From positions 1 through 59,789 of IMG/VR virus record IMGVR_UViG_3300032225_000982: a DNA stretch of 59,789 nucleotides, one strand, 5' to 3'. Made by a program: the position numbers and the translations under genes. The notes under the pieces are model-generated. The model searched no databases. It saw nothing but the letters and a program-made list of their open reading frames with translations, and was not told where the DNA came from. The DNA comes from a virus (Duplodnaviria; Caudoviricetes). Shown here one piece after another: positions 1,739-58,981 of the stretch. Position 1 is the first letter of the stretch; every line of letters begins with the position of its first letter.

Positions 1739-2074
1739 ATGACCGACGCAATCATGACCGCCGCCCTTTACGCCAACAAGCTCGGCTACAGCGACGTGGA
1801 CCCCTACGAGGTGATCCGCCAGATCAGCCCCAAAACCATCGAAATCCGCGCCATGAAAGCCGAGCGCGACAATTCTTGGAAAATGGACTTTGTGCCGGGC
1901 GGGTTTTTTGGCACCGTGGTCAACCAGCGCGATCAAAAATGGTTCATCAGCAGCGACCTGGAGCGCAAGATTATCCGCATCCGCCTGCGCCGCGATGGTC
2001 AGTGGTATGACGCCCACGACAACCGCTACTCGCTGGGCGACAAGCCGGTCAAATTTTACGATTACAACTTTTGA
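1739..2074 (+). CDS. Hypothetical phage early-type protein
   Basis: Strong RBS, genome-typical codon usage, own promoter and downstream hairpin. Confidence 0.8.
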   Translation: MTDAIMTAALYANKLGYSDVDPYEVIRQISPKTIEIRAMKAERDNSWKMDFVPGGFFGTVVNQRDQKWFISSDLERKIIRIRLRRDGQWYDAHDNRYSLGDKPVKFYDYNF

Positions 2075-2076
2075 GC

Positions 2077-2110
2077 AAAAACCCCCGGCGAAAGCCGGGG
2101 GAATCGCTTT
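2077..2110. terminator. GC hairpin with GAAA tetraloop, probable intrinsic terminator
   Basis: CCCCCGGC-GAAA-GCCGGGGG at 2082-2101 with an A-tract on the 5' side. Confidence 0.65.
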
Positions 2111-2127
2111 ACTTTGGAAAGGTTTAC

Positions 2128-2409
2128 ATGAAGCTCGACCTGCATTTCACCCCGCACGAAGCCCGCGCGGTCAAATTCCTCGCCGCGCGGTGCGGCGAGG
2201 AAGTGCCTTTGGAGGCACTTGCAAACGCCATTTACGGCGCGGAAGATCGCCCCAGGACATGGAGGCAATCGGCCATGGCCATGATGCGCCAACTGCAAAT
2301 CAAATGCGCGCTTTATGGCCCGATAGAATTCTACCGCAAAAGCCGCCTGGGTGCGGGCGGCAAAGCTATCTACCTCGCAACATCACGAAAGGACGAAACA
2401 CATGGATAA
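2128..2409 (+). CDS. Winged-HTH-like DNA-binding protein
   Basis: GGAAAGG RBS; pattern FTPHEARAVKFL..GEEVPLEALANAIYG resembles the OmpR-type C-terminal wHTH. Confidence 0.55.
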   Translation: MKLDLHFTPHEARAVKFLAARCGEEVPLEALANAIYGAEDRPRTWRQSAMAMMRQLQIKCALYGPIEFYRKSRLGAGGKAIYLATSRKDETHG

Positions 2410-2608
2410 ACCCCTGCCCATCAAGCTGGTGGATTTGGAAATGGCGCAACGCGTCAAGCAAATCAGCCGCGAGATTCCTTCCAGTCCGGAGGTGGTGCGC
2501 GAGGTGCTGGCCACCGTGGCGGAATACCTCACCCACCGCTCCAAAGGCGACGACGACGCCGCCCGCCACGATCTGAAATACGTCACCATGGTGGTTGGGT
2601 TCCTGTGA
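2402..2608 (+). CDS. Hypothetical protein
   Basis: AAAGGA RBS; overlaps both neighbours as in a coupled operon. Confidence 0.7.
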   Translation: MDKPLPIKLVDLEMAQRVKQISREIPSSPEVVREVLATVAEYLTHRSKGDDDAARHDLKYVTMVVGFL

Positions 2609-2868
2609 TGGAAAATCTTCAGAAAATGGCTGTCACGCCCGTTGATGCCCGTTACCTCAAATGCGCCGAGGAAATGCGCGACGAGGCCACCAAGATCGCC
2701 ATGACCATCGCCCGCGCCGGTCATTGCCACCCCGGAATTCCGGCGGCGTTGGATGCCCACGTCTCCGCGATGCTCCAAGCCATCGCCGCCGAGCATATGG
2801 CATACGGACGCGAGACGCTGGCCAAGCATTATCTTGCCAGCGCATTGCGGGTGGAGGCTGGGGTATGA
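2605..2868 (+). CDS. Hypothetical protein
   Basis: GTGA overlap; 87 aa. Confidence 0.65.
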   Translation: MMENLQKMAVTPVDARYLKCAEEMRDEATKIAMTIARAGHCHPGIPAALDAHVSAMLQAIAAEHMAYGRETLAKHYLASALRVEAGV

Positions 2869-3230
2869 ACAAAATGCGCCCAATCTCCGAGATGATCGTT
2901 GGCCTGCGCGCTCTGGCAAATCACCCAGAAGCTTTGATCAGCGACGCTCTATTTGCAAACGACACCGCCAATTACATCGAGGGTGCGACCGACAGTTTGC
3001 GCGAGCATATGCAAATGCTCAAAGAGATGCGGGTAAGGCTGGAGCAGGTGCGCCCCCTGATGGTGGTGGCCGCTAAGGAACTGGAAGAATTTTACGACAT
3101 GTATCGGTCGAACCAACATCAATATGAACGCGACATGGAACTGCCTCGCGCCATCCGCGATTTGCTGCGCTGGTGGGAGCCGGGGACAACAGAACCTGTC
3201 AGCATTAGCCATTGGGGGATTGTGGAATGA
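2865..3230 (+). CDS. Hypothetical protein
   Basis: ATGA overlap after GGAGG; starts MNKMRPISE. Confidence 0.65.
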   Translation: MNKMRPISEMIVGLRALANHPEALISDALFANDTANYIEGATDSLREHMQMLKEMRVRLEQVRPLMVVAAKELEEFYDMYRSNQHQYERDMELPRAIRDLLRWWEPGTTEPVSISHWGIVE

Positions 3231-3460
3231 GCAAGCCAGCAAAAGACGAAGCCGAACTGATGGAGCGGGTGGCAGAAGCCCTATACGATAATTACGATTT
3301 GGACCTACCGATGTCTTTTACTCTCGCCGCCATCCGCGCGGCAGGGTGGGCGGTTGTGCCGGTGGAGCCGACCGAGGCAATGTTGCTTGCCGCGCGCCAT
3401 TTTAAGGCCCGTAAATTCTACCGCGATATGATCGCAGCAGCGCCGGAGGTGAAGCCATGA
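3227..3460 (+). CDS. Hypothetical protein (VVPVEPTEAML motif family)
   Basis: ATGA overlap; the W.VVPVEPTEAM..A motif is common in small phage proteins. Confidence 0.7.
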   Translation: MSKPAKDEAELMERVAEALYDNYDLDLPMSFTLAAIRAAGWAVVPVEPTEAMLLAARHFKARKFYRDMIAAAPEVKP

Positions 3461-3837
3461 GCGGATGGCCTAATCCTTTGAAGCCCGGCATGCCGTTGAA
3501 TCCTGAGAAAGATGGATGGCATTGGCTAGCTGATCCGGCAAGCACTCAATTTTATTTTTGGCACCGTCCGGTAAAGTGGATTGGAGAAATTAAAAGCTGG
3601 TTATTTGGAGGTTGCGTAACGTGGCGCGAAATGAATGAAACGGGCTGGAGATACCTCGGCCCATGCCTAAAGCCAGCCGAGGCAGACAACCTCCTCGTCG
3701 AAAACGCGCGGCTGCGGGAGGCTTTGGAAAATAGCGCCATAATGATTCAAGGCTGTTACGACGCGCCGACCAATCCCAACAGCTTGCCTCAAATGCTATT
3801 GCACTACATTCGCGCAGCCCTGGAGGTGAAGCCGTGA
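3457..3837 (+). CDS. Hypothetical Trp-rich protein
   Basis: ATGA overlap, GGAGG RBS. Confidence 0.7.
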   Translation: MSGWPNPLKPGMPLNPEKDGWHWLADPASTQFYFWHRPVKWIGEIKSWLFGGCVTWREMNETGWRYLGPCLKPAEADNLLVENARLREALENSAIMIQGCYDAPTNPNSLPQMLLHYIRAALEVKP

Positions 3838-4040
3838 TCACTCAACTCAACCCGCCCATTCCCGTTCGCACGCTGGACGGTAAAGGCATGGCGCACATGA
3901 TAATTGATTATGGCGTCGAGCACGATTTGCTTTGGGTGGTGTTTCAAAATGACACTGGCGAATGCTGGTGCTGGCGGAATCAGGACATTCGCGCGCAGAA
4001 CAATATCACCATGGGCAGGGTGACGGAGGCTCCGCCATGA
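3834..4040 (+). CDS. Hypothetical protein
   Basis: GTGA overlap, GGAGG RBS; QLNPPIPV..GKG.AH..IDYG.EH pattern. Confidence 0.75.
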   Translation: MITQLNPPIPVRTLDGKGMAHMIIDYGVEHDLLWVVFQNDTGECWCWRNQDIRAQNNITMGRVTEAPP

Positions 4041-4390
4041 GTGGAGCCAGGGCGGCGATTGTCGCCCTGATCCTCGCCGCTGGTGCCGCCCAGGCGTCGC
4101 CACGGTGTCCACCAACCGGGCTGGCGTCGTGGTATGGCGCTAGTCACAATGGACGCCCGACAGCCTCCGGAGAGCCATTCAGGAGTGCTGCTATGACGGC
4201 AGCGTCGCGGTGCCTGCCGTTTGGCACCGTCGTCGAGGTGATGCACCGCGATAGGTCTGTGGTCGTGCGGATCAACGACCGGGGGCCATACGTTTCATCG
4301 AGAATTCTGGACCTGTCGCACGAAGCCGCGAAGCGCCTGCACATCACCGGCGTGGGGTTTGTGCGAATCAGGGTTTTGCATCGCCCATAA
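4037..4390 (+). CDS. rlpA: RlpA-like (DPBB) lytic transglycosylase with signal peptide
   Basis: GLASWYG, TASGE.F, MTAA, LPFGT, VVVRINDRGPY and ILDLS motifs; N-terminus MSGARAAIVALILAAGAAQA. Confidence 0.88.
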   Translation: MSGARAAIVALILAAGAAQASPRCPPTGLASWYGASHNGRPTASGEPFRSAAMTAASRCLPFGTVVEVMHRDRSVVVRINDRGPYVSSRILDLSHEAAKRLHITGVGFVRIRVLHRP

Positions 4391-14264: not shown

Positions 14265-14473
14265 GCGGTCAGGAATTCCGCGACGCCATCGCCGCCACGG
14301 GGGTCTCCGTGGCGTGGCTGGCAAAGGCAACCGGGCGCAGCAAGAGTGCGTTCCGTCGGTGGATGGATGGTAGCGCCCGGCCACCGCCCACCCTGATGAA
14401 CTGGCTCATCACCCGCGCCGCCAACCCGCCGCCTACTTTTGAACCCGACCCTCGCAAGAAGAATTTGCCATGA
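14261..14473 (+). CDS. Small HTH protein
   Basis: EFRDAIAATG.S.AWLA..TGRS..AFRRW..G. Confidence 0.75.
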   Translation: MSGQEFRDAIAATGVSVAWLAKATGRSKSAFRRWMDGSARPPPTLMNWLITRAANPPPTFEPDPRKKNLP

Positions 14474-15135
14474 CCACGCCAATTAAGTATCCCGAAATTT
14501 ATGACGAAATTCGGCGCTGCCCGAACGAGCCGCCCGCATCCATCGCCAAGCGCCTAGGATTTGAGGCGCGAACCGTCGGGCACGTCCGCGCCCGAATGGT
14601 GAAGACGGGCGTGGTGGAAAATATTTTCCACAAAAACGTCATTGCGCATCCGGAAATTTATAACGCGATCCGCGAAAATCCCAACGAAATGCCTGCATCC
14701 ATCGCCAAGCGCCTGGGCGTTGCTCCACGTCTCGTCTCTCATGTGCGGGGGCGGATGATCGCCAATGGCGTGGTGCAAAACATCTCAATCCGAAACCTCA
14801 CGCCCATCACCGACGATGAGCGAACGGTCATCCTGGCGCTGCGCGAGCGGGGATTCTCTTATCCCGCCATCGGGCAGAAAATGGGGCGGAGCAAAGGTGC
14901 GATTGAACGCTTGTGCAACAACGCCCGCGACGCCGGGGAGTTGAAGCCAATTGTCTATCAGCCCCGCGAGGCGGTGCAGCGCGCCATCGAGATGGTCGAA
15001 AAGCGCCCACTGCCCAGGCTTGGCCTGAACATGACGGAAGCGGAGGAGCGCGCCGTGGCGTCGCTCCAGAATTCCTTGCGGAACAAAACCAAGTTGGAAC
15101 TGCTCACCATGGTGCGGGGCCGGATGCGAAAATAA
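14470..15135 (+). CDS. Multi-HTH DNA-binding protein (tandem repeat plus a third HTH)
   Basis: Two copies of PEIY..IR..PNE.PASIAKRLG..., then GFSYPAIGQKMGRS. Confidence 0.75.
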   Translation: MTTPIKYPEIYDEIRRCPNEPPASIAKRLGFEARTVGHVRARMVKTGVVENIFHKNVIAHPEIYNAIRENPNEMPASIAKRLGVAPRLVSHVRGRMIANGVVQNISIRNLTPITDDERTVILALRERGFSYPAIGQKMGRSKGAIERLCNNARDAGELKPIVYQPREAVQRAIEMVEKRPLPRLGLNMTEAEERAVASLQNSLRNKTKLELLTMVRGRMRK

Positions 15136-16138: not shown

Positions 16139-17734
16139 ATGGCACCGCTTCCCATTCGCATCGCCGCCACTCAGGCCGCTCCCGCAGCCAAGCACCAGCC
16201 TTCGCCTCAGCAAATTGCGGTTTATGACTGGACCAGCAACGGCACCGGCAGCGCGGTCATTGAAGCCGTCGCAGGCGCGGGCAAAACCACCACCCTCATC
16301 AACCTGCTCGACCGCACCAACGGCGATGTGGCTTTCATGGCTTACAACAAGAAAATCGCGGAAGAGATTGCAATCAAGGCCGCACCGCTCAACCTCGGCG
16401 CCCGGGTGCGCATTGGCACGGTGCACAGCTTTGGCTTTTCCGCCCTGCGCACCGTTTGCCCCCGCGCGAAAGTCGACGGCAAAAAGCTGATCACCATCGC
16501 CAAGCGCATGACGCAAAACAGGCGCCTGCCAATTGAGCTTCACGAATTCGCGGTCAAAGCCGCCGCCATGGCAAAGCAGGCAGGCATCGGCGCGATGACC
16601 GACATCGCCTCGCCCACCGCCTGGGCCGAGATGATCGCGCACCACGCCATCGATGAATTGCTGCCGGAAGGCTACGGCACCGCCGAAGGCATCCGCGCCG
16701 CTTGCGGGCTGCTTATTGCCAGCAACGACATGGCCGATCAAATGGTCGACTTTGACGACATGATCTACCTGCCGCTTCAGCGCGGCTTAGCCATAAAGCC
16801 CTACGACTGGGTGCTGCTCGACGAGGCGCAGGACACCAACGCCACCCGCCGCGCCCTGGCCAGCAAGCTGCTCGCGCCCGGTGGCCGCTTGGTTGCGGTG
16901 GGCGACCCCGCCCAGGCCATCTACGGTTTTACCGGCGCGGACTCCGACAGCCTCGACCTGATCCGCAAAGACTTCAACGCGATCACGCTGCCGCTGACCG
17001 TCTCCTACCGCTGCCCCCAGGCGGTGGTGGCCGAAGCCCGCCGCTGGGTGCAGCACATCCAGCCCGCCGACAACGCCATCGAAGGCAGCGTCGAGCGCAT
17101 CGCGGAGGAGGATTTCTGGGGTTCCGCTAAAAAGGCAGGAATTTACACGGGGCTGACCGCCGACGACGCCATCCTTTGCCGAAACACCAACCCGCTGGTC
17201 AAATTGGCTTACGGACTCATCCGGCGCGGCAAGGGCTGCATCATCGAAGGCCGCGACATCGGCATGGGGCTGATCAAGCTGGCGACCAAATGGAAAACCG
17301 CCGCAACGGTGGAAGACCTGCGCAGCAAACTGGCCCGCTGGTCGCAGGCGGAAATCAAACGCGCCCTGGACAAAGGACAGGATGCGCACGCCGCCAAGAT
17401 TGAGGACCAAACCAGCACGCTGCTCGAAATCATGAGCACGCTGCCCGACGACGCGCCCATCGCCAGCATCCAGGACGCAATCAACAAGCTCTTTGGCGAC
17501 ACGCCCGCAGGCGAGCGCCCTAAGGTGGTCACGCTCTCGACCATCCACAAAAGCAAGGGCCGGGAATGGCCCCGAGTGCTCTGGTGGGGCGCCAACGCCT
17601 ACCAGCCCAGCCCCTACGCTCGCCAGGAATGGCAGCAGGGCCAGGAGCGCAACCTAATGTATGTTGCCGCCACACGCGCCCAGGAAACCCTGGTGCATGT
17701 CACCGTTGAGAAAGAAAGAAGAGGCGAACTATGA
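16139..17734 (+). CDS. UvrD/Rep-family SF1 helicase
   Basis: AVAGAGKT, TVHS, DFDDM, LDEAQD, VGDPAQAIYGF, YRCP, STIHKSKGRE and YVAATRA. Confidence 0.93.
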   Translation: MAPLPIRIAATQAAPAAKHQPSPQQIAVYDWTSNGTGSAVIEAVAGAGKTTTLINLLDRTNGDVAFMAYNKKIAEEIAIKAAPLNLGARVRIGTVHSFGFSALRTVCPRAKVDGKKLITIAKRMTQNRRLPIELHEFAVKAAAMAKQAGIGAMTDIASPTAWAEMIAHHAIDELLPEGYGTAEGIRAACGLLIASNDMADQMVDFDDMIYLPLQRGLAIKPYDWVLLDEAQDTNATRRALASKLLAPGGRLVAVGDPAQAIYGFTGADSDSLDLIRKDFNAITLPLTVSYRCPQAVVAEARRWVQHIQPADNAIEGSVERIAEEDFWGSAKKAGIYTGLTADDAILCRNTNPLVKLAYGLIRRGKGCIIEGRDIGMGLIKLATKWKTAATVEDLRSKLARWSQAEIKRALDKGQDAHAAKIEDQTSTLLEIMSTLPDDAPIASIQDAINKLFGDTPAGERPKVVTLSTIHKSKGREWPRVLWWGANAYQPSPYARQEWQQGQERNLMYVAATRAQETLVHVTVEKERRGEL

Positions 17735-17940
17735 ACGACGCAGAATTTAGGGCCATCGTGGATCAAGGCCCGCTGATCGTAATGGTTGAGAAGGGCCACC
17801 TGCTGGCCCTGCTCGATGAGCGGGACGAGCTTCGAAACGAGCGCGACACCCTTCGAGCGGCGCTGACCGAGGTTATGTCTGGTCTCGACGAAATCATCGA
17901 ATTTGCTCACGGCACTTTGCACGAGGAAACTAAACAATGA
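17731..17940 (+). CDS. Hypothetical coiled-coil protein
   Basis: ATGA overlap; LALLDERDELR. Confidence 0.65.
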   Translation: MNDAEFRAIVDQGPLIVMVEKGHLLALLDERDELRNERDTLRAALTEVMSGLDEIIEFAHGTLHEETKQ

Positions 17941-18056
17941 CATTTGATTTTTTTTGGGGCGTTTTAATCGCAGGATGTATGGGCGGCGTTTTGGGTGCTT
18001 GCGTAGGCATAGCAGCGCAATGGCGCGAGACGGACATTAAGCCGGAGGACAAGTGA
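17937..18056 (+). CDS. 39-aa single-pass membrane protein (not in the ORF track)
   Basis: GAGGA RBS and ATGA overlap; MTFDFFWGVLIAGCMGGVLGACVGIAAQWRETDIKPEDK. Confidence 0.55.
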   Translation: MTFDFFWGVLIAGCMGGVLGACVGIAAQWRETDIKPEDK

Positions 18057-18134
18057 TAAAGGCTTTTGTCCGCCGGGGTTGATCGGGTATCATTCGCCGC
18101 TTACTTTTGACGCGGACCCCGAAGGACAAATATT

Positions 18135-18794
18135 GTGAAAACCGCCCCGCAGCAATCCTGGCCAGCCGATCAAGTTGAGCGCTGGCCCATCGATAAGCTG
18201 GTTCCGTATGCCCGCAACTCCCGCACGCACTCCGACACTCAAGTCGCGCAAATTGCCGCCAGCATCAAAGAATGGGGCTGGACCACGCCCGTGCTGGTGT
18301 CGGAGGACGGCACGCTAATAGCGGGCCACGGGCGCGTCATGGCGGCGCGTAAGCTGGGTCTGTCCGAGGTGCCGGTGATGATCGCCCGGGGCTGGACCGA
18401 GGCGCAGCGCCGCGCTTATGTCATTGCAGATAACAAGCTGGCCCTGAACGCTGGATGGGACGAAGATTTGCTGAAAATTGAATTTCAAGAATTGGGAGAA
18501 ATCAATTTTAATGTGGAATTAGTCGGTTTTTCTCAAGGAGAAATCAGCACTTTATTTCTTGAAACTCAAGAAGGAAAAACAAACGCCGAAGAAGAATGGA
18601 AAGGGATGCCTGAATTTGAGGATGCAGAACCTTGGTTTAGAAAAGTAATTGTGCATTTTGAATGCCAAGCTGATGTAGATGAATTTTTTAGATTGATTGG
18701 TCAAGAAGCCACTGAAAAAACTAAATCAATTTGGCATCCTAAAAAAGAACGCAGAGACTTGGAATCGGCGCGCTGGTCTCAAGAGGATAACTAA
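18135..18794 (+). CDS. ParB/Srx N-terminal domain protein with an AT-rich C-terminal domain
   Basis: LVPYARNSRTH, IAASIKEWGWT.PVL, IAGHGR and YVIADNKL; C-terminus WKGMPEF...KTKSIWHP. Confidence 0.88.
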   Translation: MKTAPQQSWPADQVERWPIDKLVPYARNSRTHSDTQVAQIAASIKEWGWTTPVLVSEDGTLIAGHGRVMAARKLGLSEVPVMIARGWTEAQRRAYVIADNKLALNAGWDEDLLKIEFQELGEINFNVELVGFSQGEISTLFLETQEGKTNAEEEWKGMPEFEDAEPWFRKVIVHFECQADVDEFFRLIGQEATEKTKSIWHPKKERRDLESARWSQEDN

Positions 18795-18795
18795 A

Positions 18796-19716
18796 ATGAG
18801 TGATCTTTTTCCTCAATTTCCGCTTTATATTCCATCAAAGGGGCGGCATGAATATATGATAACAAGCAAAGCTCTCACCGAAATGGGCTTGAAGCATTTT
18901 ATAATTGTAGAGCCGCAACAAGTTAACGATTACAAAAATTCTATAAAAAAAATGGGACTTACCGCAGAAATAATTACACTAGATATGTCATATAAAGAAA
19001 AATACGAATTATGTGATAATTTGGGATTAACAAAATCAACAGGCCCTGGACCGGCAAGAAATTTTGCTTGGGATCATTCAATATCCAATGGGCATAAATG
19101 GCATTGGGTTATGGATGACAATATATCTTCGTTTAGAAGAATGCACAAAAAAGAACGCATTAAAACAACTTCGCCTTCTTTTTGGCGGGCCATGGAAGAT
19201 TTTGTGCTAAGATATAAAAACATAGCAATGGCAGGGCCAGATTATTCAATGTTTGCTTTTGCTGCATCAAAGCAGCCACCATTTATTACTAACACTCGCA
19301 TTTATTCTTGCAATTTAATAAGAAATGATGTCCCATTTCGTTGGCGCGGAAGATACAATGAAGATACAATACTTTCTCTTGACATGCTAAAAGCAAAATG
19401 GTGCACCGTCCAATTTAATGCCTTTTTGCAAAACAAAATGGCAACTCAGGTAATACCTGGAGGAAATACAGCTGAATTTTACCACGCAGAGGGAGAAGTT
19501 AAAGAAGGAAAAAAATATGCAGATAATGGAACATTAGAAAAGAGCAAAATGCAAGTTAGAGTTCATCCTGATGTTTCAAAAATGGTATGGAAGTTTGATA
19601 GATGGCACCATCATGTAGATTATACCAAATTCAGAAATCAAAAACTTATTAGAAGAGATGATATTGAAATTTCAAACAAACCTAACGAATACGGAATGAA
19701 ACTTAAAAGGTTATAA
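18796..19716 (+). CDS. GT-A fold glycosyltransferase, TAGT/GREB1-like DNA-modification type
   Basis: YIPSKGR, ARNFAWD, WVMDDNI (DxD-type), NTRIYSC, RYNEDT and GGNT; AT-rich; placed between ParB and terminase. Confidence 0.75.
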   Translation: MSDLFPQFPLYIPSKGRHEYMITSKALTEMGLKHFIIVEPQQVNDYKNSIKKMGLTAEIITLDMSYKEKYELCDNLGLTKSTGPGPARNFAWDHSISNGHKWHWVMDDNISSFRRMHKKERIKTTSPSFWRAMEDFVLRYKNIAMAGPDYSMFAFAASKQPPFITNTRIYSCNLIRNDVPFRWRGRYNEDTILSLDMLKAKWCTVQFNAFLQNKMATQVIPGGNTAEFYHAEGEVKEGKKYADNGTLEKSKMQVRVHPDVSKMVWKFDRWHHHVDYTKFRNQKLIRRDDIEISNKPNEYGMKLKRL

Positions 19717-19719
19717 ATA

Positions 19720-20073
19720 ATGAGCAAACACCCCGGAGGCAGACCGCCTTACAAACCAACCGACCGCGACCGAGGCATGGTGAAAACCATGATTGGCTAC
19801 GGCATTCCGTATTCCGAAATTGCGAACGTTTTGAAGATCGACCTCAAAACGATGCGCAAATATTATCGCGACGAAATGGACACGGGCGCTACCACCGCCA
19901 ACGCCGCCATGGCGCAGAACCTGTGGAAGAAGGCCATGGGCGACGGGCCGTCATCCGTCAGCGCAACAATCTTTTGGCTCAAGTGCCGCGCTGGATGGCG
20001 GGACGTTGCGCCGCTGGAAGACCTAGAAAAGGGGTTGACCATCAAAGTGATTGGCGGCTTGCCCGATGCCTGA
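19720..20073 (+). CDS. terS: Terminase small subunit
   Basis: GRPPYKPT, an HTH, and IFWLKCRAGWRD; directly upstream of TerL. Confidence 0.8.
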   Translation: MSKHPGGRPPYKPTDRDRGMVKTMIGYGIPYSEIANVLKIDLKTMRKYYRDEMDTGATTANAAMAQNLWKKAMGDGPSSVSATIFWLKCRAGWRDVAPLEDLEKGLTIKVIGGLPDA

Positions 20074-21358
20074 ACTCGTCGTGAAGCTGCCCGAACTGCA
20101 TACCGGGCAGGTTGGCGCGTTTAAGATGCTTGACGCTGGCGGCAAGCCCGCGCGCTTCCGCGCGATCCGCTGCGGGCGCCGCTGGGGCAAAACCAGCATG
20201 GCCAAAACCATGGCGGGCGACCGCATCATGAAGGGCCGCATTCAGGGCTATTTCGTCCCGGCGTATAAATATCAAACTGAAATCTACGACGAACTGCTCG
20301 ACATGCTCCGCCCAGTGGTGAAATCGCACAACAAGACCGAGGGCATCATCCGCTGCATCACCGGAGGGCGGATTGAATTCTGGACCCTGGAAAACGAAAG
20401 CGCGGGCCGATCCCGGAAATATCACGATGTCTATATCGACGAGGCGGCGTTCACCAAACCCAACATGATGGACATTTGGAATCGCGCCATCCAGCCCACG
20501 TTGCTCGATTTCAAAGGCACGGCGACGGTCCTGAGCAACGCCAACGGTGTCGATCCCGACAATTTCTTCTGGCGCATCTGCAACGAGCCAGAACACGGCT
20601 TTGTCGAATTCCACGCCCCCACGGCCAGCAACCCCTACATGTCGCAAGAGGAGTTGGTGCGGCTTGAGGCGGAACGCCCGCCAATGGTGTGGAAACAGGA
20701 ATACCTTGCGGAATTCGTGGATTGGTCTGGCACCCAATTCTTCAAGCTAGAAAACTTGCTCGCTGACGGCGCCCCGGTGGAATACCCAACGCAGTGCGCT
20801 GGCGTGTTCGCCGTCGTTGATACCGCCACCAAAACCGGCAAAGACAATGACGGCACCGCCGTCATTTTTTGCGCCCGTGGCGCATACGGCATGAAGCCAG
20901 AATTGGTCATCCTCGATTATGAAGTCTGCCAGATCGAAGGCGCGCTGTTGGAGCATTGGCTGCCCAACATCTTCGCTCGGTTGGAAGAATTCTCCGCCCA
21001 ATGCGGCGCGCAAATCGGCAACCTTGGCGTCTGGATTGAGGACAAGGCATCCGGCATGGTGCTGCTGCAACAGGGTGTCCGACGCGGCTGGAACACCCAC
21101 AGCATCGACAGCAAGCTGACCAGTCTGGGCAAGGCGGAGCGTGCCATTTCCGTTTCCGGCTACGTTCACCAGGGCAAAGTGAAATTTTCCCGCCACGCTT
21201 ACGAAAAAACGATGATATACAAAGGCGCGACGAGAAACCACCTTATGCAACAGGTTTTGACGTTTACCCTGGGCGTCAAAGACATGGGCGAAGATGACCT
21301 GCTCGACGCATTCTGCTATTCCATCGCTATCGCACTAGGCAACCAAGAGGGGTTCTGA
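20066..21358 (+). CDS. terL: Terminase large subunit
   Basis: CGRRWGKT (Walker A), YIDEAAF (Walker B), QEYLAEF, nuclease VDTA..D and DDLLDA. Confidence 0.93.
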   Translation: MPELVVKLPELHTGQVGAFKMLDAGGKPARFRAIRCGRRWGKTSMAKTMAGDRIMKGRIQGYFVPAYKYQTEIYDELLDMLRPVVKSHNKTEGIIRCITGGRIEFWTLENESAGRSRKYHDVYIDEAAFTKPNMMDIWNRAIQPTLLDFKGTATVLSNANGVDPDNFFWRICNEPEHGFVEFHAPTASNPYMSQEELVRLEAERPPMVWKQEYLAEFVDWSGTQFFKLENLLADGAPVEYPTQCAGVFAVVDTATKTGKDNDGTAVIFCARGAYGMKPELVILDYEVCQIEGALLEHWLPNIFARLEEFSAQCGAQIGNLGVWIEDKASGMVLLQQGVRRGWNTHSIDSKLTSLGKAERAISVSGYVHQGKVKFSRHAYEKTMIYKGATRNHLMQQVLTFTLGVKDMGEDDLLDAFCYSIAIALGNQEGF

Positions 21359-24359: not shown

Positions 24360-26207
24360 GTGATCAAAGCCGCTGGCATCATGTTTTTGAACGAAGCGGG
24401 CGAAGTGCTTCTGCTGAAGCGCGGACCCGGCGGCGATTGGCCCGGCGCATGGTGCTTTCCTGGCGGCGAACAAAAGGGCGACGAAACGTCCGAACAGACA
24501 GCGGTCCGCGAGTGCGAGGAGGAGCTAGGCTTCTGCCCGCCCGGCCCCCGCCGCGTTTGGGCGCGTCGCATCAGTGACAATCAATTTCCGCCCGGCGAGG
24601 AGCAACCCGCCGACGTTAACCCTGTGCCGCCGATTGGCGATCCGGTGGATTACACGACGTTCTTGCAGCGCGTCGAAGGTCGCTTCGATCCGCTGCTAAA
24701 CGGCGAACATACCTCATTCGCTTGGTGCAGCGTTGATTCTCCCCGCACACCGCTGCACCCGGGCGCCCGCGTCGCTCTAGAAAAGCTCTCGATGGATGAG
24801 CTTGGGGTGGCGCGGGCAATCATGAAGGGCGATCTTGTCAGCCCGCAGCATTACGAAAACGTGTGGCTATTCGCGCTGCGCATCACCGGCACCGGCACAG
24901 CATACCGCAGCAAGATTGACGAATACGTTTATCGGAAGCCGGAAAACTACCTCAATCAGCATTTTCTGGACCGCTGCAACGGGCTTCCCGTGATCTGGGA
25001 GCATCCCAAAGCGGGCAAGCTGGACAGCAAAGAATTCATCAATCGCGTCATCGGCACCATCCTTTTGCCCTACATCCAAGGCGAAGAAGTTTGGGGAATC
25101 GCCAAAATCTACGATGACGAAGCCGCCATGCAAATGGCGTCGAAGCAACTCTCGACCTCACCTGCCGTTGTTTTCCGTCAAACGGATGGCAATGTGCAGG
25201 AAAGGCTTGAGGACGGGTCTAATCTTCTGATAGAAGGCAAGCCCAGTCTATTGGACCATCTTGCTATTTGCGAAGAGGGTGTATGGGACAAGGGCGGTCC
25301 TCCCGCCGGAGTCGAACTGCCCGAAACCATTGAAACAACCTCCGGAGGTAATACTATGGCTGAAGTTGAGAAAGAAATGGAAGGCGCTGAAAAGCGTGCG
25401 GACGCTGACGGCGCCAACCTCGACAAGCTGCTGATGGGCATTGACGCCCTGTGCAGCCGCATGGATAAAATGCACGAAGCTCATCAGGAAATGAAGGGCC
25501 GACTGGATTCCCTGCAGGACCTGAAAATGGCCAAGGCCGCTGACGACGATGACGACGACATGGCCGACAACGTCGAGCTTGAAGTCGAAGAGCCGCAGAT
25601 GGTTCGCGCCGGTGGCGCCATGCCGCCGCGCATGATGGCTGACGATGACGACGACGATATGGCGCCGCCCAAGGTGCAGAAGGCCGACGACGACATGAAG
25701 GCCGACAGCGCCCGCCGCGCCGCCAACGATGCACACGTTGCTGCGGAAATCCGCCGCCTCTCCGCTCTGATCGGCAAGATGCCCAAGAGCATGAGCGATG
25801 CGGATTACGCCGCGATGGCCGACTATCAGGCCCGCGCCGATAGCGTTTACAGCGCCTTCGGTGAACGCGCCCCCGCCCCGCTCCAGGGCGAGACGGCCCC
25901 CGCCTACCGCATCCGTCTGGCGAAGGGCATGCAGAGCCATAGCGAAGCCTGGAAGTCGGTTCCGCTGCGCGATCTGCCTGAAAACGCGCTCGACATCGCG
26001 GAAGCCGCCATCTACGCCGATGCCACCGCCGCTGCTCGCAGCCCGGTTGGTGTCTCGGCTGGCAGCCTCCGCGCGATTAAGAAGCGTGACGCCGCCGACC
26101 GCGTGATCACTGAATTCGTCGGTGAGCCTAGCGCATGGATGGGCGAATTCCGGACGGCACCGCGCGCAATTGCGAAGCCGTTCTTCCGTCGCAACGCTAT
26201 GCACTAA
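24360..26207 (+). CDS. Nudix hydrolase fused to a DUF2213-like prohead protease and scaffold
   Basis: Nudix box GGEQKGDETSEQTAVRECEEELG; VIWEHP, LSTSP and DHLAIC.G.WD; acidic scaffold tail; upstream of the decoration and capsid genes. Confidence 0.8.
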   Translation: MIKAAGIMFLNEAGEVLLLKRGPGGDWPGAWCFPGGEQKGDETSEQTAVRECEEELGFCPPGPRRVWARRISDNQFPPGEEQPADVNPVPPIGDPVDYTTFLQRVEGRFDPLLNGEHTSFAWCSVDSPRTPLHPGARVALEKLSMDELGVARAIMKGDLVSPQHYENVWLFALRITGTGTAYRSKIDEYVYRKPENYLNQHFLDRCNGLPVIWEHPKAGKLDSKEFINRVIGTILLPYIQGEEVWGIAKIYDDEAAMQMASKQLSTSPAVVFRQTDGNVQERLEDGSNLLIEGKPSLLDHLAICEEGVWDKGGPPAGVELPETIETTSGGNTMAEVEKEMEGAEKRADADGANLDKLLMGIDALCSRMDKMHEAHQEMKGRLDSLQDLKMAKAADDDDDDMADNVELEVEEPQMVRAGGAMPPRMMADDDDDDMAPPKVQKADDDMKADSARRAANDAHVAAEIRRLSALIGKMPKSMSDADYAAMADYQARADSVYSAFGERAPAPLQGETAPAYRIRLAKGMQSHSEAWKSVPLRDLPENALDIAEAAIYADATAAARSPVGVSAGSLRAIKKRDAADRVITEFVGEPSAWMGEFRTAPRAIAKPFFRRNAMH

Positions 26208-41096: not shown

Positions 41097-45563
<4,467 letters not shown>

Positions 45564-48697: not shown

Positions 48698-51906
<3,209 letters not shown>

Positions 51907-51907
<1 letters not shown>

Positions 51908-56542: not shown

Positions 56543-56769
56543 CTCAAGACATTTTCAACGCCATGATGTCCATCGGGGTGGCCGGTTTTGGCTGGCTGCT
56601 CAAGACAGTCTGGGACGCCATCGGCTCGCTGAAGGACAGCCTCAGTAAGCTGGAGCGTGAAATCCACACCTCGTATGTCAGCAAGGCGGATTACCGTCAG
56701 GACATCACGGAGATGAAGGACATGCTCAAAGCCATCTTTTCAAAGCTCGATACGAAAGCCGATAAATGA
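56539..56769 (+). CDS. Membrane-anchored coiled-coil protein (possible lysis accessory)
   Basis: N-terminal hydrophobic helix, YVSK.DY and KLD.K.DK. Confidence 0.65.
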   Translation: MTQDIFNAMMSIGVAGFGWLLKTVWDAIGSLKDSLSKLEREIHTSYVSKADYRQDITEMKDMLKAIFSKLDTKADK

Positions 56770-57293
56770 TCCAAGCTCATTATGACGCGGCGGTTCGGAC
56801 GACCAGCGACATCAATGAACACCTTCCGACCCTCCTCAATCTAGCCAACGAGTGCAATCACGTCACGGAGTTTGGCGTGCGCTGGGGCGCAAGCACCTGC
56901 GCCTTCATGATGTCAACGGCGCGGCTGGTCAGCTATGACATTGTGCAGCACCCCGCCGCCCTGCGCCTTTTTGAAGTCGCCTTCGAGGAAGGCAGGCAAG
57001 CGGAATTCATCCAGGCGGACACGCTGAAGCTCGGCACCATCGACGAGACCGATTTGCTTTTCATCGACACGCTGCACAACTACGGCCAGCTTTTGCAGGA
57101 GCTATTCACCTTCCACGGCAGCGTCAGGAAATACATCGTCTTGCACGACACGGTGACGTATGGTGAGCGCGGCGAGAGCGGCGGCCCCGGGTTGATGCAA
57201 GCGGTGCGGGAATTCCTGACGACGTTCCCGCGCTGGGAAATCAAGCAGCACTACCAAAACAACAACGGGTTAATGGTTCTCGGGCGCGCATGA
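56766..57293 (+). CDS. Class I SAM-dependent methyltransferase (Methyltransf_24-like)
   Basis: VTEFGVRWG.ST, SYDI, DLLFIDTLH.Y and IVLHDT. Confidence 0.82.
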   Translation: MIQAHYDAAVRTTSDINEHLPTLLNLANECNHVTEFGVRWGASTCAFMMSTARLVSYDIVQHPAALRLFEVAFEEGRQAEFIQADTLKLGTIDETDLLFIDTLHNYGQLLQELFTFHGSVRKYIVLHDTVTYGERGESGGPGLMQAVREFLTTFPRWEIKQHYQNNNGLMVLGRA

Positions 57294-58981
57294 TTCCGCT
57301 GATAGTTTGCACGACGCGGCCTGAAAACTCTGGGCCTTCGCCGCTGACCGTGATGCGCGAGAGCGTCCACGCCTACGGCGCGCTACAAACCGAATTGCAG
57401 GTCTTCCGCACCGGCCACGGCAATTTTGGCGCCGCATACAATTATGCAATGCAAAAAGCGTTTGAGACGCACGACGAAATTCTGATTGCCAATGACGACA
57501 TTGTGTTGAACCCATCGACCATCCGCGTGCTGATGGAAGATGTCGCCACCCTGCGCGCTACGGTGCCGCGCATTGGCCTTGTAGCTGCACGATCCGACTC
57601 CGTGCGCTATTGCCAGAACATCCACCATATGCGGAATCCCGACGCGGTGGAGGTTGAAGCCGTCTCGCCTATCCTGGCTTGGATTAGTCGTGAGGCTTTT
57701 GAAGCCGCGCCGTTTCCGCCCATCAATTGGTATTCGGATGATGTGCAGTGCGCCGACCTTTCCGCGCTGGGCTATCAGCATTTCGTTTCGCGTGCCTATG
57801 TGCATCATGTCGGATCGTCCACCATCGGGCACGACAATCAGCGCCACATCGACGAGGCGCGACCATGGATCGTCGCAAACCGCCCCCAATACGCCACGCG
57901 CTGGGGCTTGATAACGAGGCCACCCTTGAAAATCGCTGTTTACGCCATCGCCAAAAACGAGGCACAATTTGTAGAACGCTTTTGCGAAGCCGCCCGGGAC
58001 GCCGACGCCATCGTGATTGCCGACACCGGCAGCACGGATGAGACGGCGGAACTAGCCGTGAAGTGCGGCGCGCTGGTGCATACCATCTCCGTGCGCCCAT
58101 GGCGGTTCGACGTGGCGCGCAACGCCGCCCTGGCCCTGGTGCCTGCCGACATCGACGTGTGTGTCAGCGTCGATCTGGATGAGGTGCTGGAACCCAACTG
58201 GCGGGAGGAGATTGAACGCCTCTGGGTGCTCAACGAGACGACGCGAATGCGCTACCCGTTCGACTGCGGCCAGGGGCTGATTTTCCAGAACGAGAAAATT
58301 CACTCTCGGCACGGCTATCGGTGGGCATACCTCTGCCACGAATACATCACGGCTGATAAGCGCATCACCGAGGCGTGGGTGGACACCGACAAGTTGCTGA
58401 TGAAGCATCTGCCCGACCCGACCAAAAGCCGTGGCCAATATCTGGACATGCTGAAAGCGGCGCGCGACGAAGACCCCAACTGCGAGCGCAGCGCATTTTA
58501 TTATGCGCGCGAGCTTTACTACCATGCGCAACATCAAGAGTGCGTTGACGCCTTTGCGCACTACCTCGCTATGCCCAGCGCCAAGTGGCCGAACAACAGG
58601 TCATTTGCCTATCGGACACGGGGCCGGTGCTATTGGCAATTGGGCGAGCAGGCAAAGGCGGAGAAAGAATTCCAACTGGCTTCGTTGGAGGAACCCAACA
58701 CCCGGGAACCTTGGTGCGAGCTTTCGGTGTTGTGCTACCGGCAAGGCCGGTGGGCGGAATCCTTCGCTTACGCCATGCGAGCGCTGGCGATCACAATCAA
58801 AGTCATCACATTTTCATCTGATCCCGCAGTTTGGGGCGCGCAACCGCATGACCATGCTGCTATTGCAGCGTATCGCTTAGGCATGAAGTCAGTCGCCATT
58901 GAGCAAGGGCAACTGGCGATAGCTTTGGCGCCGGATGATGATCGGTTGAAAGCCAATCTCAAGTTTTACATGGAGGACTGA
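57290..58981 (+). CDS. Double GT2 glycosyltransferase with TPR tail
   Basis: Domain 1: NFGAAYN, ANDD, WYSDD, HHVGS. Domain 2: AKNE, DTGSTD, FDVARN, DLDE, HE. TPR-like helices follow. Confidence 0.87.
   Translation: MIPLIVCTTRPENSGPSPLTVMRESVHAYGALQTELQVFRTGHGNFGAAYNYAMQKAFETHDEILIANDDIVLNPSTIRVLMEDVATLRATVPRIGLVAARSDSVRYCQNIHHMRNPDAVEVEAVSPILAWISREAFEAAPFPPINWYSDDVQCADLSALGYQHFVSRAYVHHVGSSTIGHDNQRHIDEARPWIVANRPQYATRWGLITRPPLKIAVYAIAKNEAQFVERFCEAARDADAIVIADTGSTDETAELAVKCGALVHTISVRPWRFDVARNAALALVPADIDVCVSVDLDEVLEPNWREEIERLWVLNETTRMRYPFDCGQGLIFQNEKIHSRHGYRWAYLCHEYITADKRITEAWVDTDKLLMKHLPDPTKSRGQYLDMLKAARDEDPNCERSAFYYARELYYHAQHQECVDAFAHYLAMPSAKWPNNRSFAYRTRGRCYWQLGEQAKAEKEFQLASLEEPNTREPWCELSVLCYRQGRWAESFAYAMRALAITIKVITFSSDPAVWGAQPHDHAAIAAYRLGMKSVAIEQGQLAIALAPDDDRLKANLKFYMED

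Follow-up and report, generated by a model that had tools for sequence, protein, structure and literature searches.

The virus genome IMGVR_UViG_3300032225_000982 (Caudoviricetes), a complete IMG/VR record of 59,789 bp that was analysed over its entire length (referred to as the window), features adjacent genes for a ParB-like protein and a glycosyltransferase (GT) directly upstream of the terminase genes. The two genes form a cassette that is a widespread module. Its GT belongs to the TAGT family, and the C-terminal domain of its ParB-like protein (C-dom) serves as the partner domain of the GT and is predicted to bind it. In close relatives, the place of the cassette is empty or is taken by a DNA methylase fused to the same ParB N-terminal domain (ParB-N). 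We consider it probable that the cassette encodes a ParB-tethered, precursor-independent glycosyltransferase that acts on DNA and functionally replaces the methylase.

The glycosyltransferase

Translation of the GT gene most likely starts at the ATG at 18796, rather than at the TTG at 18697. When compared to the Pfam model TAGT (PF20691), residues 8-219 of the protein matched profile positions 1-202 of 205 with a score of 139.2 bits (E 2.2e-40), which is far above the cut-off of 27.5 bits. The six-frame search with the same model yielded 140.2 bits. The AlphaFold2 (AF2) model of the protein (pLDDT 89.9, pTM 0.89) had 108 Foldseek matches in the PDB at E <= 0.001. The top listed matches, with TM values of 0.36-0.47 and E values from 1.3e-5, are GT-A enzymes (LH3, POMGnT1, GpgS, TarP/S, GnT-I and AvpGT). 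Profile match, fold model and structural comparison are thus in agreement with the original prediction, which had assigned the protein to the TAGT-family GT-A enzymes. A search of PDB sequences with the GT profile gave no matches, and NCBIfam holds a family neither for the GT nor for the small terminase subunit (terS).

An alignment of 46 homologues has a mean column identity of 62% and 73 invariant columns. The invariant columns include R17, D107-D108-N109 in HWVMDDNI and E189-D190-T191 in NEDT. About 85 amino acids at the C-terminus (220-306) lie outside the Pfam model and include the predicted ParB-binding tail.

The ParB-like protein and the C-dom

The ParB-like protein consists of an N-terminal domain with ParB/Srx CTPase fold (residues 1-109), a helical linker (110-147) and the C-dom (148-219). 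Its score against Pfam ParB_N (PF02195) is 27.1 bits, just above the cut-off of 26.3 bits, and residues 4-153 match phrog_498, which comprises ParB-methylase fusions, at E 2e-52. With the AF2 model (pLDDT 88.1), the best Foldseek match in the PDB was the CTP/CDP-bound ParB of M. xanthus (7bnk; E 2.3e-8, root mean square deviation 2.9 Å, 137 columns), and further matches were Noc, KorB, PadC and sulfiredoxin. In ParB-N, N28 and G64 are invariant among the 46 sequences, while R30, H65, R67, D99 and N100 are conserved in at least 90%. The motif GHGR presumably occupies the place of GERR in the NTP pocket, as judged from a mapping to the M. xanthus protein made by eye. The score against TIGR00180 (28.1 bits) falls below the cut-off of 58.45 bits and the C-terminus is formed by the C-dom, so the protein is not classed as a canonical partition ParB. 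A canonical ParABS system would comprise a ParA partner and a ParB with a parS-binding HTH domain and a C-terminal dimerisation domain; a ParA/CbiA-type match was absent among the 89 scanned open reading frames (ORFs) of the window.

The C-dom spans about 70 amino acids and has no Pfam family. Residues W155, M158, P159, E160, F184, T196 and P202 are invariant in the 46 sequences. The segment WKGMPEF...KTKSIWHP had been taken as a ParB domain that was acquired together with the GT. Its joint arrival with the GT stands; the domain itself proved to be a dedicated partner of this GT clade, which forms a single polypeptide with the GT in other phages and is predicted to dock onto it.

Relatives of the GT are encoded by at least 598 viral contigs, of which the best 80 loci (GT identity 58-78%, locus GC 0.30-0.70) were used for linkage counts. 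In tblastn searches with ParB residues 150-219, the C-dom was found upstream of the GT in 78 of the 80 loci; in both remaining loci a contig end is no more than about 210 nt away from the GT. Of the 78 C-dom-bearing loci, 67 also gave a tblastn match to ParB-N, and some of the others encode a divergent ParB-N (L022 and L029, with sub-threshold Pfam scores). A gene for a class-I SAM (S-adenosylmethionine) methyltransferase sits between the ParB-C-dom gene and the GT gene in L008, L022, L023 and L029. Among loci from prokaryotic genomes, which are prophage-like and include Ideonella, Rubrivivax, Rhodovulum, Erwinia, Pantoea, Chryseobacterium and Bartonella metagenome-assembled genomes, 27 of 32 have the C-dom upstream of the GT. 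Cultured bacteria with both genes in prophage-like loci are Pantoea stewartii ATCC 8199 (L203), Erwinia sp. OLFS4 (L202), Rhodovulum euryhalinum DSM 4868 (L200) and three Chryseobacterium strains (L210-L212).

In cultured phages, the C-dom and the GT are found within one protein. The GT ORFs of Aeh1, Vibrio 1.076.O and Kuja, the three of 23 phage records that were examined for the fused form, encode 389-446 amino acids, and their N-terminal extension is the C-dom. Aligned by hhalign with the ParB alignment, Aeh1p093 gave a probability of 98.1 (E 1.2e-13), NVP1076O_12 of Vibrio 1.076.O 97.2 (E 3e-11) and Kuja gp032 84 (E 7e-6). Kuja has two copies of the fused GT. From the best 120 of 162 longer GT-containing database proteins, ten were read. 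The C-dom is located immediately N-terminal to the GT in P0074, P0045, P0110 and P0122, and the architectures comprise C-dom, GT and DNA polymerase A (P0074), a tandem of two C-dom-GT units (P0045) and a GT with an SNF2 helicase without C-dom (P0075). Fusion of the GT to DNA polymerase A was also observed in P0084, and in P0033 and P0039 the GT is joined to a second TAGT-like domain, which is more canonical (DDD...ED.DF/Y). A search for longer C-dom-containing proteins yielded 29 matches of 147-226 amino acids, mostly with ParB_N, and no new architecture.

Structure prediction supports binding of the C-dom to the GT. The modelled complex of the GT and ParB residues 148-219 reached ipSAE values of 0.87, 0.86 and 0.87, compared to 0.05 for the best control; in the calibration of the method, 116 of 157 solved complexes and two of 215 mismatched pairs attained this mark. 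The partner has a pLDDT of 80 or more, and the runs have no less than 84% of the contacts in common. In the model, the invariant residues W155, M158, P159 and E160 (EWxGMPEF) lie against GT residues 132-139, 158-165 and 292-306. Pairwise GT identity correlates with C-dom identity (Spearman 0.41, Mantel p 0.001), compared to 0.21 (p 0.027) for GT and ParB-N and 0.11 for ParB-N and C-dom; these values are indicative only, as the sequences are related to one another.

The ORF upstream of the GT in L078 (5739-5999) encodes 86 amino acids and consists of the C-dom alone. In the ESM Atlas, the clusters nearest to the C-dom are unnamed viral proteins of 73-92 amino acids (scores 0.92-0.93), which we regard as a lead only. 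The C-dom may also occur as a free-standing protein.

Composition and junctions of the imported block

In 200-nt sliding windows, a G + C content of 0.60-0.67 gives way to 0.30-0.41 in the region from about 18450 to 19750. The 59.8-kb genome, which has a G + C content of 0.58, contains no second trough of this kind. The block from 18463 to 19718 (1,256 bp) has a G + C content of 0.351, while all other windows of 1,256 bp average 0.581 (standard deviation 0.036), corresponding to z = -6.4. The minimum among 45 non-overlapping windows of this size is 0.504. At third codon positions, ParB codons 1-109 have a G + C content of 0.76 and codons 110-219 one of 0.26; the corresponding values are 0.27 in the GT gene and 0.71 in terS. 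An abrupt switch inside the ParB gene, formerly placed at about 18470, is therefore confirmed.

In 40-nt steps, the left junction was located sharply at 18462|18463, after ParB codon 109 (...NAGWD|EDLLK...) and directly 3' of the conserved ...LALNAGWD of ParB-N. The right junction is at 19716-19719, between the GT stop codon (19714-19716) and the terS ATG (19720), so that the block ends 1 nt before the terS start. A return to GC-rich sequence had been noted and is indeed seen; its edge lies in front of terS and not within this gene at about 19735. Independent support comes from the relative L087 (terL 91% identical), to which nucleotide homology ends at 18461 and picks up again at 19719. Composition, junctions and the homology break agree that the C-terminal part of ParB and the GT arrived together, and 18463-19718 is confirmed as a foreign block.

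A near-identical donor of the cassette was sought among the fetched loci, and none was identified, with a top nucleotide identity of 70-71%. An intrinsically AT-rich GT gene was rejected as an explanation, since GT genes in GC-rich phages have a G + C content of 0.58-0.63 (L012, L015 and L028). A comparable composition step within ParB was observed in five more loci (L003, L010, L021, L027 and L052).

A single nucleotide separates the ParB stop codon from the GT ATG, and a ribosome-binding site (AGAGGA) is located 8 nt upstream of the GT ATG. No terminator-like site was found on the plus strand from 17700 to 20200, including the region between ParB and terS. Based on this absence and the 1-nt spacing, ParB, GT and terS look like one transcription unit. 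Promoter-like matches near the locus numbered nine, compared to 4.5 expected, and are given no interpretation.

The slot in related phages

For comparison of the slot, 80 loci with terL relatives were retrieved. In L084 and L083 (terL 97% identical), of which L084 is the closest relative by terL, no more than about 15 nt separate the counterparts of 17731-18119 and 19719, and both ParB and GT are lacking. In public runs of two other studies (X2 and X3), a contig likewise joins 18119 to 19719 with 15 other letters in between. L087 shares nucleotide homology of 87% over 18056-18461, and the 419-aa ORF in its slot consists of ParB-N (94% identical over residues 1-109) fused to an N6_N4_Mtase domain (E 4e-21). 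L090 (terL 79%) encodes a 523-aa fusion of ParB-N with a different N6_N4 methylase. In a contig of run X4 and a minor contig of run X1, sequence divergence begins at 18461. The runs were used in the form of assembled contigs, and window parts that are uncovered in X2-X4 served as evidence only where a contig bridges them. The slot therefore has at least three states in close relatives, namely empty, ParB-N-methylase, and ParB-N-C-dom with GT, and its breakpoint is the end of ParB-N. The proposal of an exchangeable slot between ParB and terS is borne out by this comparison.

L084 also features a 2.35-kb insertion (2002-4259) between the UvrD gene and a small ORF, which comprises a gene for an SNF2-like helicase and a separate N6_N4 methylase gene and recurs in a contig of run X2. 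An N6/N4 or C5 DNA methylase was not found in six-frame searches of the window, for which the controls were positive.

Search for a precursor pathway

A Pfam scan of 89 selected window ORFs (46 at E <= 0.01 and 43 at E <= 0.001) revealed no precursor-pathway gene. In the same control-positive six-frame searches, matches to Thymidylat_synt, C5 DNA_methylase, N6_N4_Mtase and 2OG-FeII_Oxy_3 were absent from the window. Shared families were determined for the window and 12 other complete or near-complete module-bearing records (GC 0.35-0.67) by BLASTP clustering of ORFs of at least 50 amino acids. The only families present in all 13 phages are the GT and the ParB-C-dom protein, and the next family occurs in seven of 13. 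Ten further shared clusters were sampled, comprising Mu-F, prohead protease, SSB, tape-measure-like, YqaJ, connector, DUF968, helix-turn-helix (HTH) and peptidase M15 proteins and one cluster without Pfam family. Of the phages with fused GTs, Aeh1 has one full Thymidylat_synt match, Vibrio 1.076.O has none and Kuja has one ThyS-like gene. Aeh1 and 65, both fused-GT phages, are absent from the Table 4 list of phages with genes 42 and 56 (Petrov 2010, PMC2993671).

The original prediction of a GT without recognisable hydroxymethylating partner holds for the window, and no such partner is a shared family of the 12 other phages, with the reservation that the control for Tet_JBP failed.

Genes downstream of the glycosyltransferase

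The first one or two non-overlapping ORFs downstream of the GT were surveyed in 54 loci; 26 near-duplicates of the 80 and most short opposite-strand ORFs were left out. In 33 of these loci, one of the ORFs encodes a terminase subunit, and several unrelated terminase families are represented. The fused GT genes of Aeh1 and Kuja are not next to terminase. The GT site is a preferred position at the boundary of replication and packaging genes, a general module boundary, and the proposed coupling of the modification to packaging is not demonstrated by it.

A cytidylyltransferase-like gene is found directly 3' of the GT in nine loci (L064, L013, L016, L039, L042, L044, L051, L055 and L059). It scores equally for RfaE domain II and for glycerol-3-phosphate cytidylyltransferase (TagD-like), in both cases below the cut-off. 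In L064 (1462-2823), a radical SAM/SPASM gene is located between it and the GT gene. These genes may make a special sugar donor. Second GT domains were also seen in some loci or proteins and fit glycan pathways in general.

Proposed mechanism and alternative explanations

In the mechanism we propose, the cassette would encode a two-subunit glycosyltransferase, most likely acting on DNA, with a TAGT/JGT-type GT-A enzyme as catalytic subunit and the C-dom as obligatory accessory domain on the ParB C-terminus. Since the C-dom is borne on ParB, the GT would be docked onto ParB, which may load or hold it on double-stranded DNA in analogy to ParB-N-methylase fusions and ParB-activated thymine dioxygenases. 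A GT held in this manner could modify phage DNA broadly after replication, and a hydroxymethyl- or hydroxy-pyrimidine precursor pathway would not be needed. The cassette would have entered by recombination at the conserved ParB-N end.

We infer that DNA is the substrate and ParB the DNA-targeting part. DNA is likely because some members of the family glycosylate DNA, the partner protein is of the ParB CTPase fold and the same ParB-N carries DNA methylases in sister phages. The fusions to DNA polymerase A (P0074 and P0084) and to an SNF2 helicase (P0075) point in the same direction, as does the reported activation of a phage thymine dioxygenase on double-stranded DNA by a ParB-like protein (PMC13229309). 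As the cassette would have replaced a methylase domain, its selective value is most likely that of the methylase, i.e. protection from DNA-targeting host defences. This anti-restriction purpose is suggested only by the equivalence with the methylase.

Several points weigh against this proposal. To our knowledge, all characterised TAGT/JGT enzymes use the hydroxyl group of 5-hydroxymethylcytosine (5hmC), 5-hydroxymethyluracil (5hmU) or a sugar. Judged from the fused sequences, in which ParB-N appears dispensable, ParB would not be essential to catalysis, and a fusion of ParB_N to the GT is not among the best 120 of 162 longer GT-containing proteins. Some loci contain cytidylyltransferase-like, FkbM, class-I methyltransferase or radical-SAM genes, as found in surface-glycan clusters. 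The family member GREB1 is a protein glycosyltransferase that O-GlcNAcylates the estrogen receptor ER-alpha (PMC7968844). Phage GT-A DNA glycosyltransferases and JGT have the motifs R...DDD...EDY/F (10.1101/2023.12.21.572611); the GT has DDN for DDD and EDT for EDY/F, with the same motif order. The six-frame search for Tet_JBP (PF12851) was negative in all of 25 and all of three records, but its control matched nowhere, so this result is not evidence of absence. Divergent 5mYOX enzymes can evade PF12851, and thousands of 5mYOX-like contigs are reported to lack that annotation (PMC13229309). BLASTP clustering at E 1e-4 could also overlook a fast-evolving shared partner.

The latter points bear on a conventional explanation, according to which the GT glycosylates 5-hydroxymethyl- (or 5-hydroxy-) pyrimidines supplied by the host or by a phage enzyme that has escaped recognition, and its orphan status is an annotation gap. 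Membership in Pfam TAGT, the family's known hydroxymethylpyrimidine acceptors (10.1101/2023.12.21.572611; PMC13390438), the Thymidylat_synt-like gene of Kuja and the unannotated 5mYOX-like contigs (PMC13229309) are in line with it. We nevertheless regard it as unlikely. ThyS-like, C5-methylase and 2OG-oxygenase matches are missing in six frames with working controls and among the 89 ORFs, and a third family common to the 13 genomes was not found. The early-region ORFs are mostly below 200 amino acids without Pfam match, and Table 4 of PMC2993671 does not name Aeh1 and 65 among the phages with gene 42.

As a further step, the ParB-docked GT might attach sugars directly to ordinary DNA that carries no hydroxymethyl or hydroxy precursor, whether at a heteroatom of a base, in the backbone or at an end, and the ParB clamp would make the reaction processive along phage DNA. 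We put this forward only tentatively, as a possible but doubtful extension of the proposal. If true, it would be a new DNA-modification chemistry and would account for a large part of the 'orphan' GT-A genes in phages that published surveys left aside.

The GT could instead modify a protein, as GREB1 does with ER-alpha (PMC7968844). Targets would be ParB itself, the terminase, or a DNA-bound or virion protein, and the C-dom would be a substrate or adaptor. The invariant T196 of the C-dom (TxKTKS) lies off the predicted interface, LH3 and POMGnT1 among the top fold matches are protein glycosyltransferases, and in 33 of 54 loci the GT has terminase genes as neighbours. This explanation appears rather improbable to us, since the same ParB-N scaffold bears DNA methylases in sister phages and the GT is fused to DNA polymerase A and SNF2 helicase. 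Besides, ParB/C-dom is the only common protein acceptor, because the terminases and capsid proteins of these phages belong to unrelated families. A small molecule or a polymer other than DNA, such as an envelope glycan or teichoic-acid-like polymer (in lysogenic conversion) or the nucleotide pool, is a very improbable target. TarP and TarS among the fold matches, the RfaE-II/TagD-like gene after the GT in nine of 54 loci and the occurrence of FkbM methyltransferases would fit such a role. It is opposed by the ParB partner, the polymerase and helicase fusions and the equivalence of the slot to a DNA methylase; in the window, accessory genes are absent and the GT is directly followed by terS.

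Genome context and other features

The genome has a 123-bp terminal direct repeat, and nearly all genes are on the plus strand (Table 1). The early/replication module encodes an AAA_24 ATPase, DUF669, a PD-(D/E)XK nuclease, a helicase, a primase-polymerase and a UvrD-like helicase, and is followed by ParB, GT, terS, terL, the portal gene and structural genes. Besides a metallophosphatase, the PD-(D/E)XK nuclease, helicases and the primase, the scanned early-region ORFs are mostly shorter than 200 amino acids and lack a Pfam match.

Table 1 Features of the ParB-GT locus with their positions in the window
Feature	Position	Strand	Evidence
ParB-like protein, 219 aa, GTG start	18135..18794	+	Pfam ParB_N 27.1 bits; phrog_620 E 2.5e-54
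Resident GC-rich ParB part, codons 1-109	18135..18462	+	GC at third codon positions 0.76; amino acid identity 94% to L087 ParB-N, 86% to L090
Imported AT-rich cassette (ParB linker, C-dom and GT)	18463..19718	.	GC 0.351, z -6.4; sharp edges; homology with relatives breaks at 18461, resumes at 19719
C-dom (ParB residues 148-219), predicted GT-docking domain	18576..18794	+	motifs EWxGMPEF and TxKTKSIWxP; upstream linkage; fusions; complex model
TAGT-family GT-A glycosyltransferase, 306 aa	18796..19716	+	PF20691 139.2 bits; phrog_842 E 3e-42; AF2 and Foldseek GT-A
Terminase small subunit (terS), resident DNA	19720..20073	+	phrog_309 E 9.6e-11; phrog_12540 E 1.1e-14; homology to relatives resumes at 19719
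Terminase large subunit (terL)	20051..21358	+	phrog_2 E 6e-31; Pfam Terminase_6N

Further genes with conspicuous features were observed elsewhere in the window. The right genome end (56766-58981) encodes a 175-aa CmcI/rhamnosyl O-methyltransferase-like protein (weak, E 3e-4) and then a 563-aa family-2 glycosyltransferase with TPR repeats. This glycan-related pair is not linked to the ParB-GT cassette, and its targets could be virion or host surface glycans. A 615-aa protein of the head module (24360-26207) has an N-terminal NUDIX domain (E 2.4e-18), which is an unusual site for a NUDIX hydrolase. Two very large fibre-like proteins of 1,488 and 1,068 amino acids (41097-45563 and 48701-51907) contain collagen triple-helix repeats, and the former also has a C-terminal Peptidase_S74 chaperone domain. 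A 221-aa HTH protein (14470-15135) features an internal duplication, in which PEIY(D/N)xIRxxPNExPASIAKRLG is present twice.

Comparison with known systems

The family TAGT (PF20691) includes the beta-glucosyl-HMC-alpha-glucosyltransferase of T2/T6 and the 5mYOX/ThyS-associated phage GT-A DNA glycosyltransferases (Pyle et al. 2024), and is related to the trypanosome JGT and animal GREB1. The phage GT-A enzymes with R...DDD...EDY/F glycosylate 5hmC in DNA (10.1101/2023.12.21.572611). The same study reports ParB-like and terminase genes near GTs and left aside about 65% of the GT contigs, which lack a 5mYOX or ThyS neighbour. The GT of the window resembles these enzymes in its hidden Markov model score (139 compared to 27.5 bits), GT-A fold, order of the Arg/DD/ED motifs and phage origin, and in the tailoring genes or second GTs that are sometimes attached. 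It differs in that a TET/5mYOX, C5-methylase or ThyS-like partner is found neither in the window nor in common among the 13 genomes. The DDN/EDT variants, the C-terminal region of about 85 amino acids outside the model and the obligatory C-dom partner are further differences.

In the 5mYOX176/ParB176 pair, a ParB-like protein activates a phage T-dioxygenase on double-stranded DNA (PNAS 2026, PMC13229309). As described there, a short protein with ParB-CTPase fold and no classical DNA-binding domain is encoded beside a post-replicative DNA-modifying enzyme, its C-terminal part is needed, and a C-terminal extension of the enzyme is predicted to touch it; the cassette would be alike in these respects. 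Its ParB and GT genes are adjacent, co-oriented and co-occurring across genomes, as is characteristic of 5mYOX/ParB-type pairs. However, the enzyme is a glycosyltransferase and not a dioxygenase, and the C-terminal ParB domain is specific to the GT and elsewhere fused to it.

Fusions of ParB-N with N6/N4 methyltransferases are frequent in phages (PMC12704722). In this survey of the ParB fold, 'glycosyl' occurs a single time, inside a cited title. Such fusions (phrog_498; L087 and L090; AcaML1 Gp25) share with the cassette the ParB-N subfamily, the linker and the slot upstream of terS. In the cassette, by contrast, the effector is predicted to be docked non-covalently via the C-dom and would transfer a sugar instead of a methyl group.

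The alpha- and beta-glucosyltransferases of T4 are GT-B enzymes that require hydroxymethylcytosine made by gp42. They transfer sugars to phage DNA after replication as an anti-defence measure (PMC13216743), which is also proposed for the GT of the cassette; the PDB sequence search (0 matches) gave no homology between them and this GT. O'Toole et al., citing Iyer et al. 2013, mention the idea that ParB homologues direct modification machinery. An account of the ParB-C-dom/TAGT module or of the C-dom was not found in the literature covered, which does not extend to Iyer et al. 2013 or the supplementary material of Pyle et al.; either may bear on priority.

The locus is a minimal, testable two-gene unit of 1.6 kb in all, with a predicted physical link between both proteins. 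It provides a natural experiment, as the ParB scaffold that bears the unit has a DNA methylase in its place in sister phages, and the fused form is present in cultured phages. Should DNA be the substrate, the newly shown partner role of ParB-fold proteins would extend from dioxygenases and methylases to glycosyltransferases. Precursor-free DNA glycosylation would then be possible, which may bear on evasion of restriction and CRISPR and on DNA-labelling tools. If DNA is not the substrate, the TAGT-family annotation in phages is over-read. Taken together, the cassette combines two known kinds of systems, TAGT glycosyltransferases and ParB-partnered DNA-modifying enzymes.

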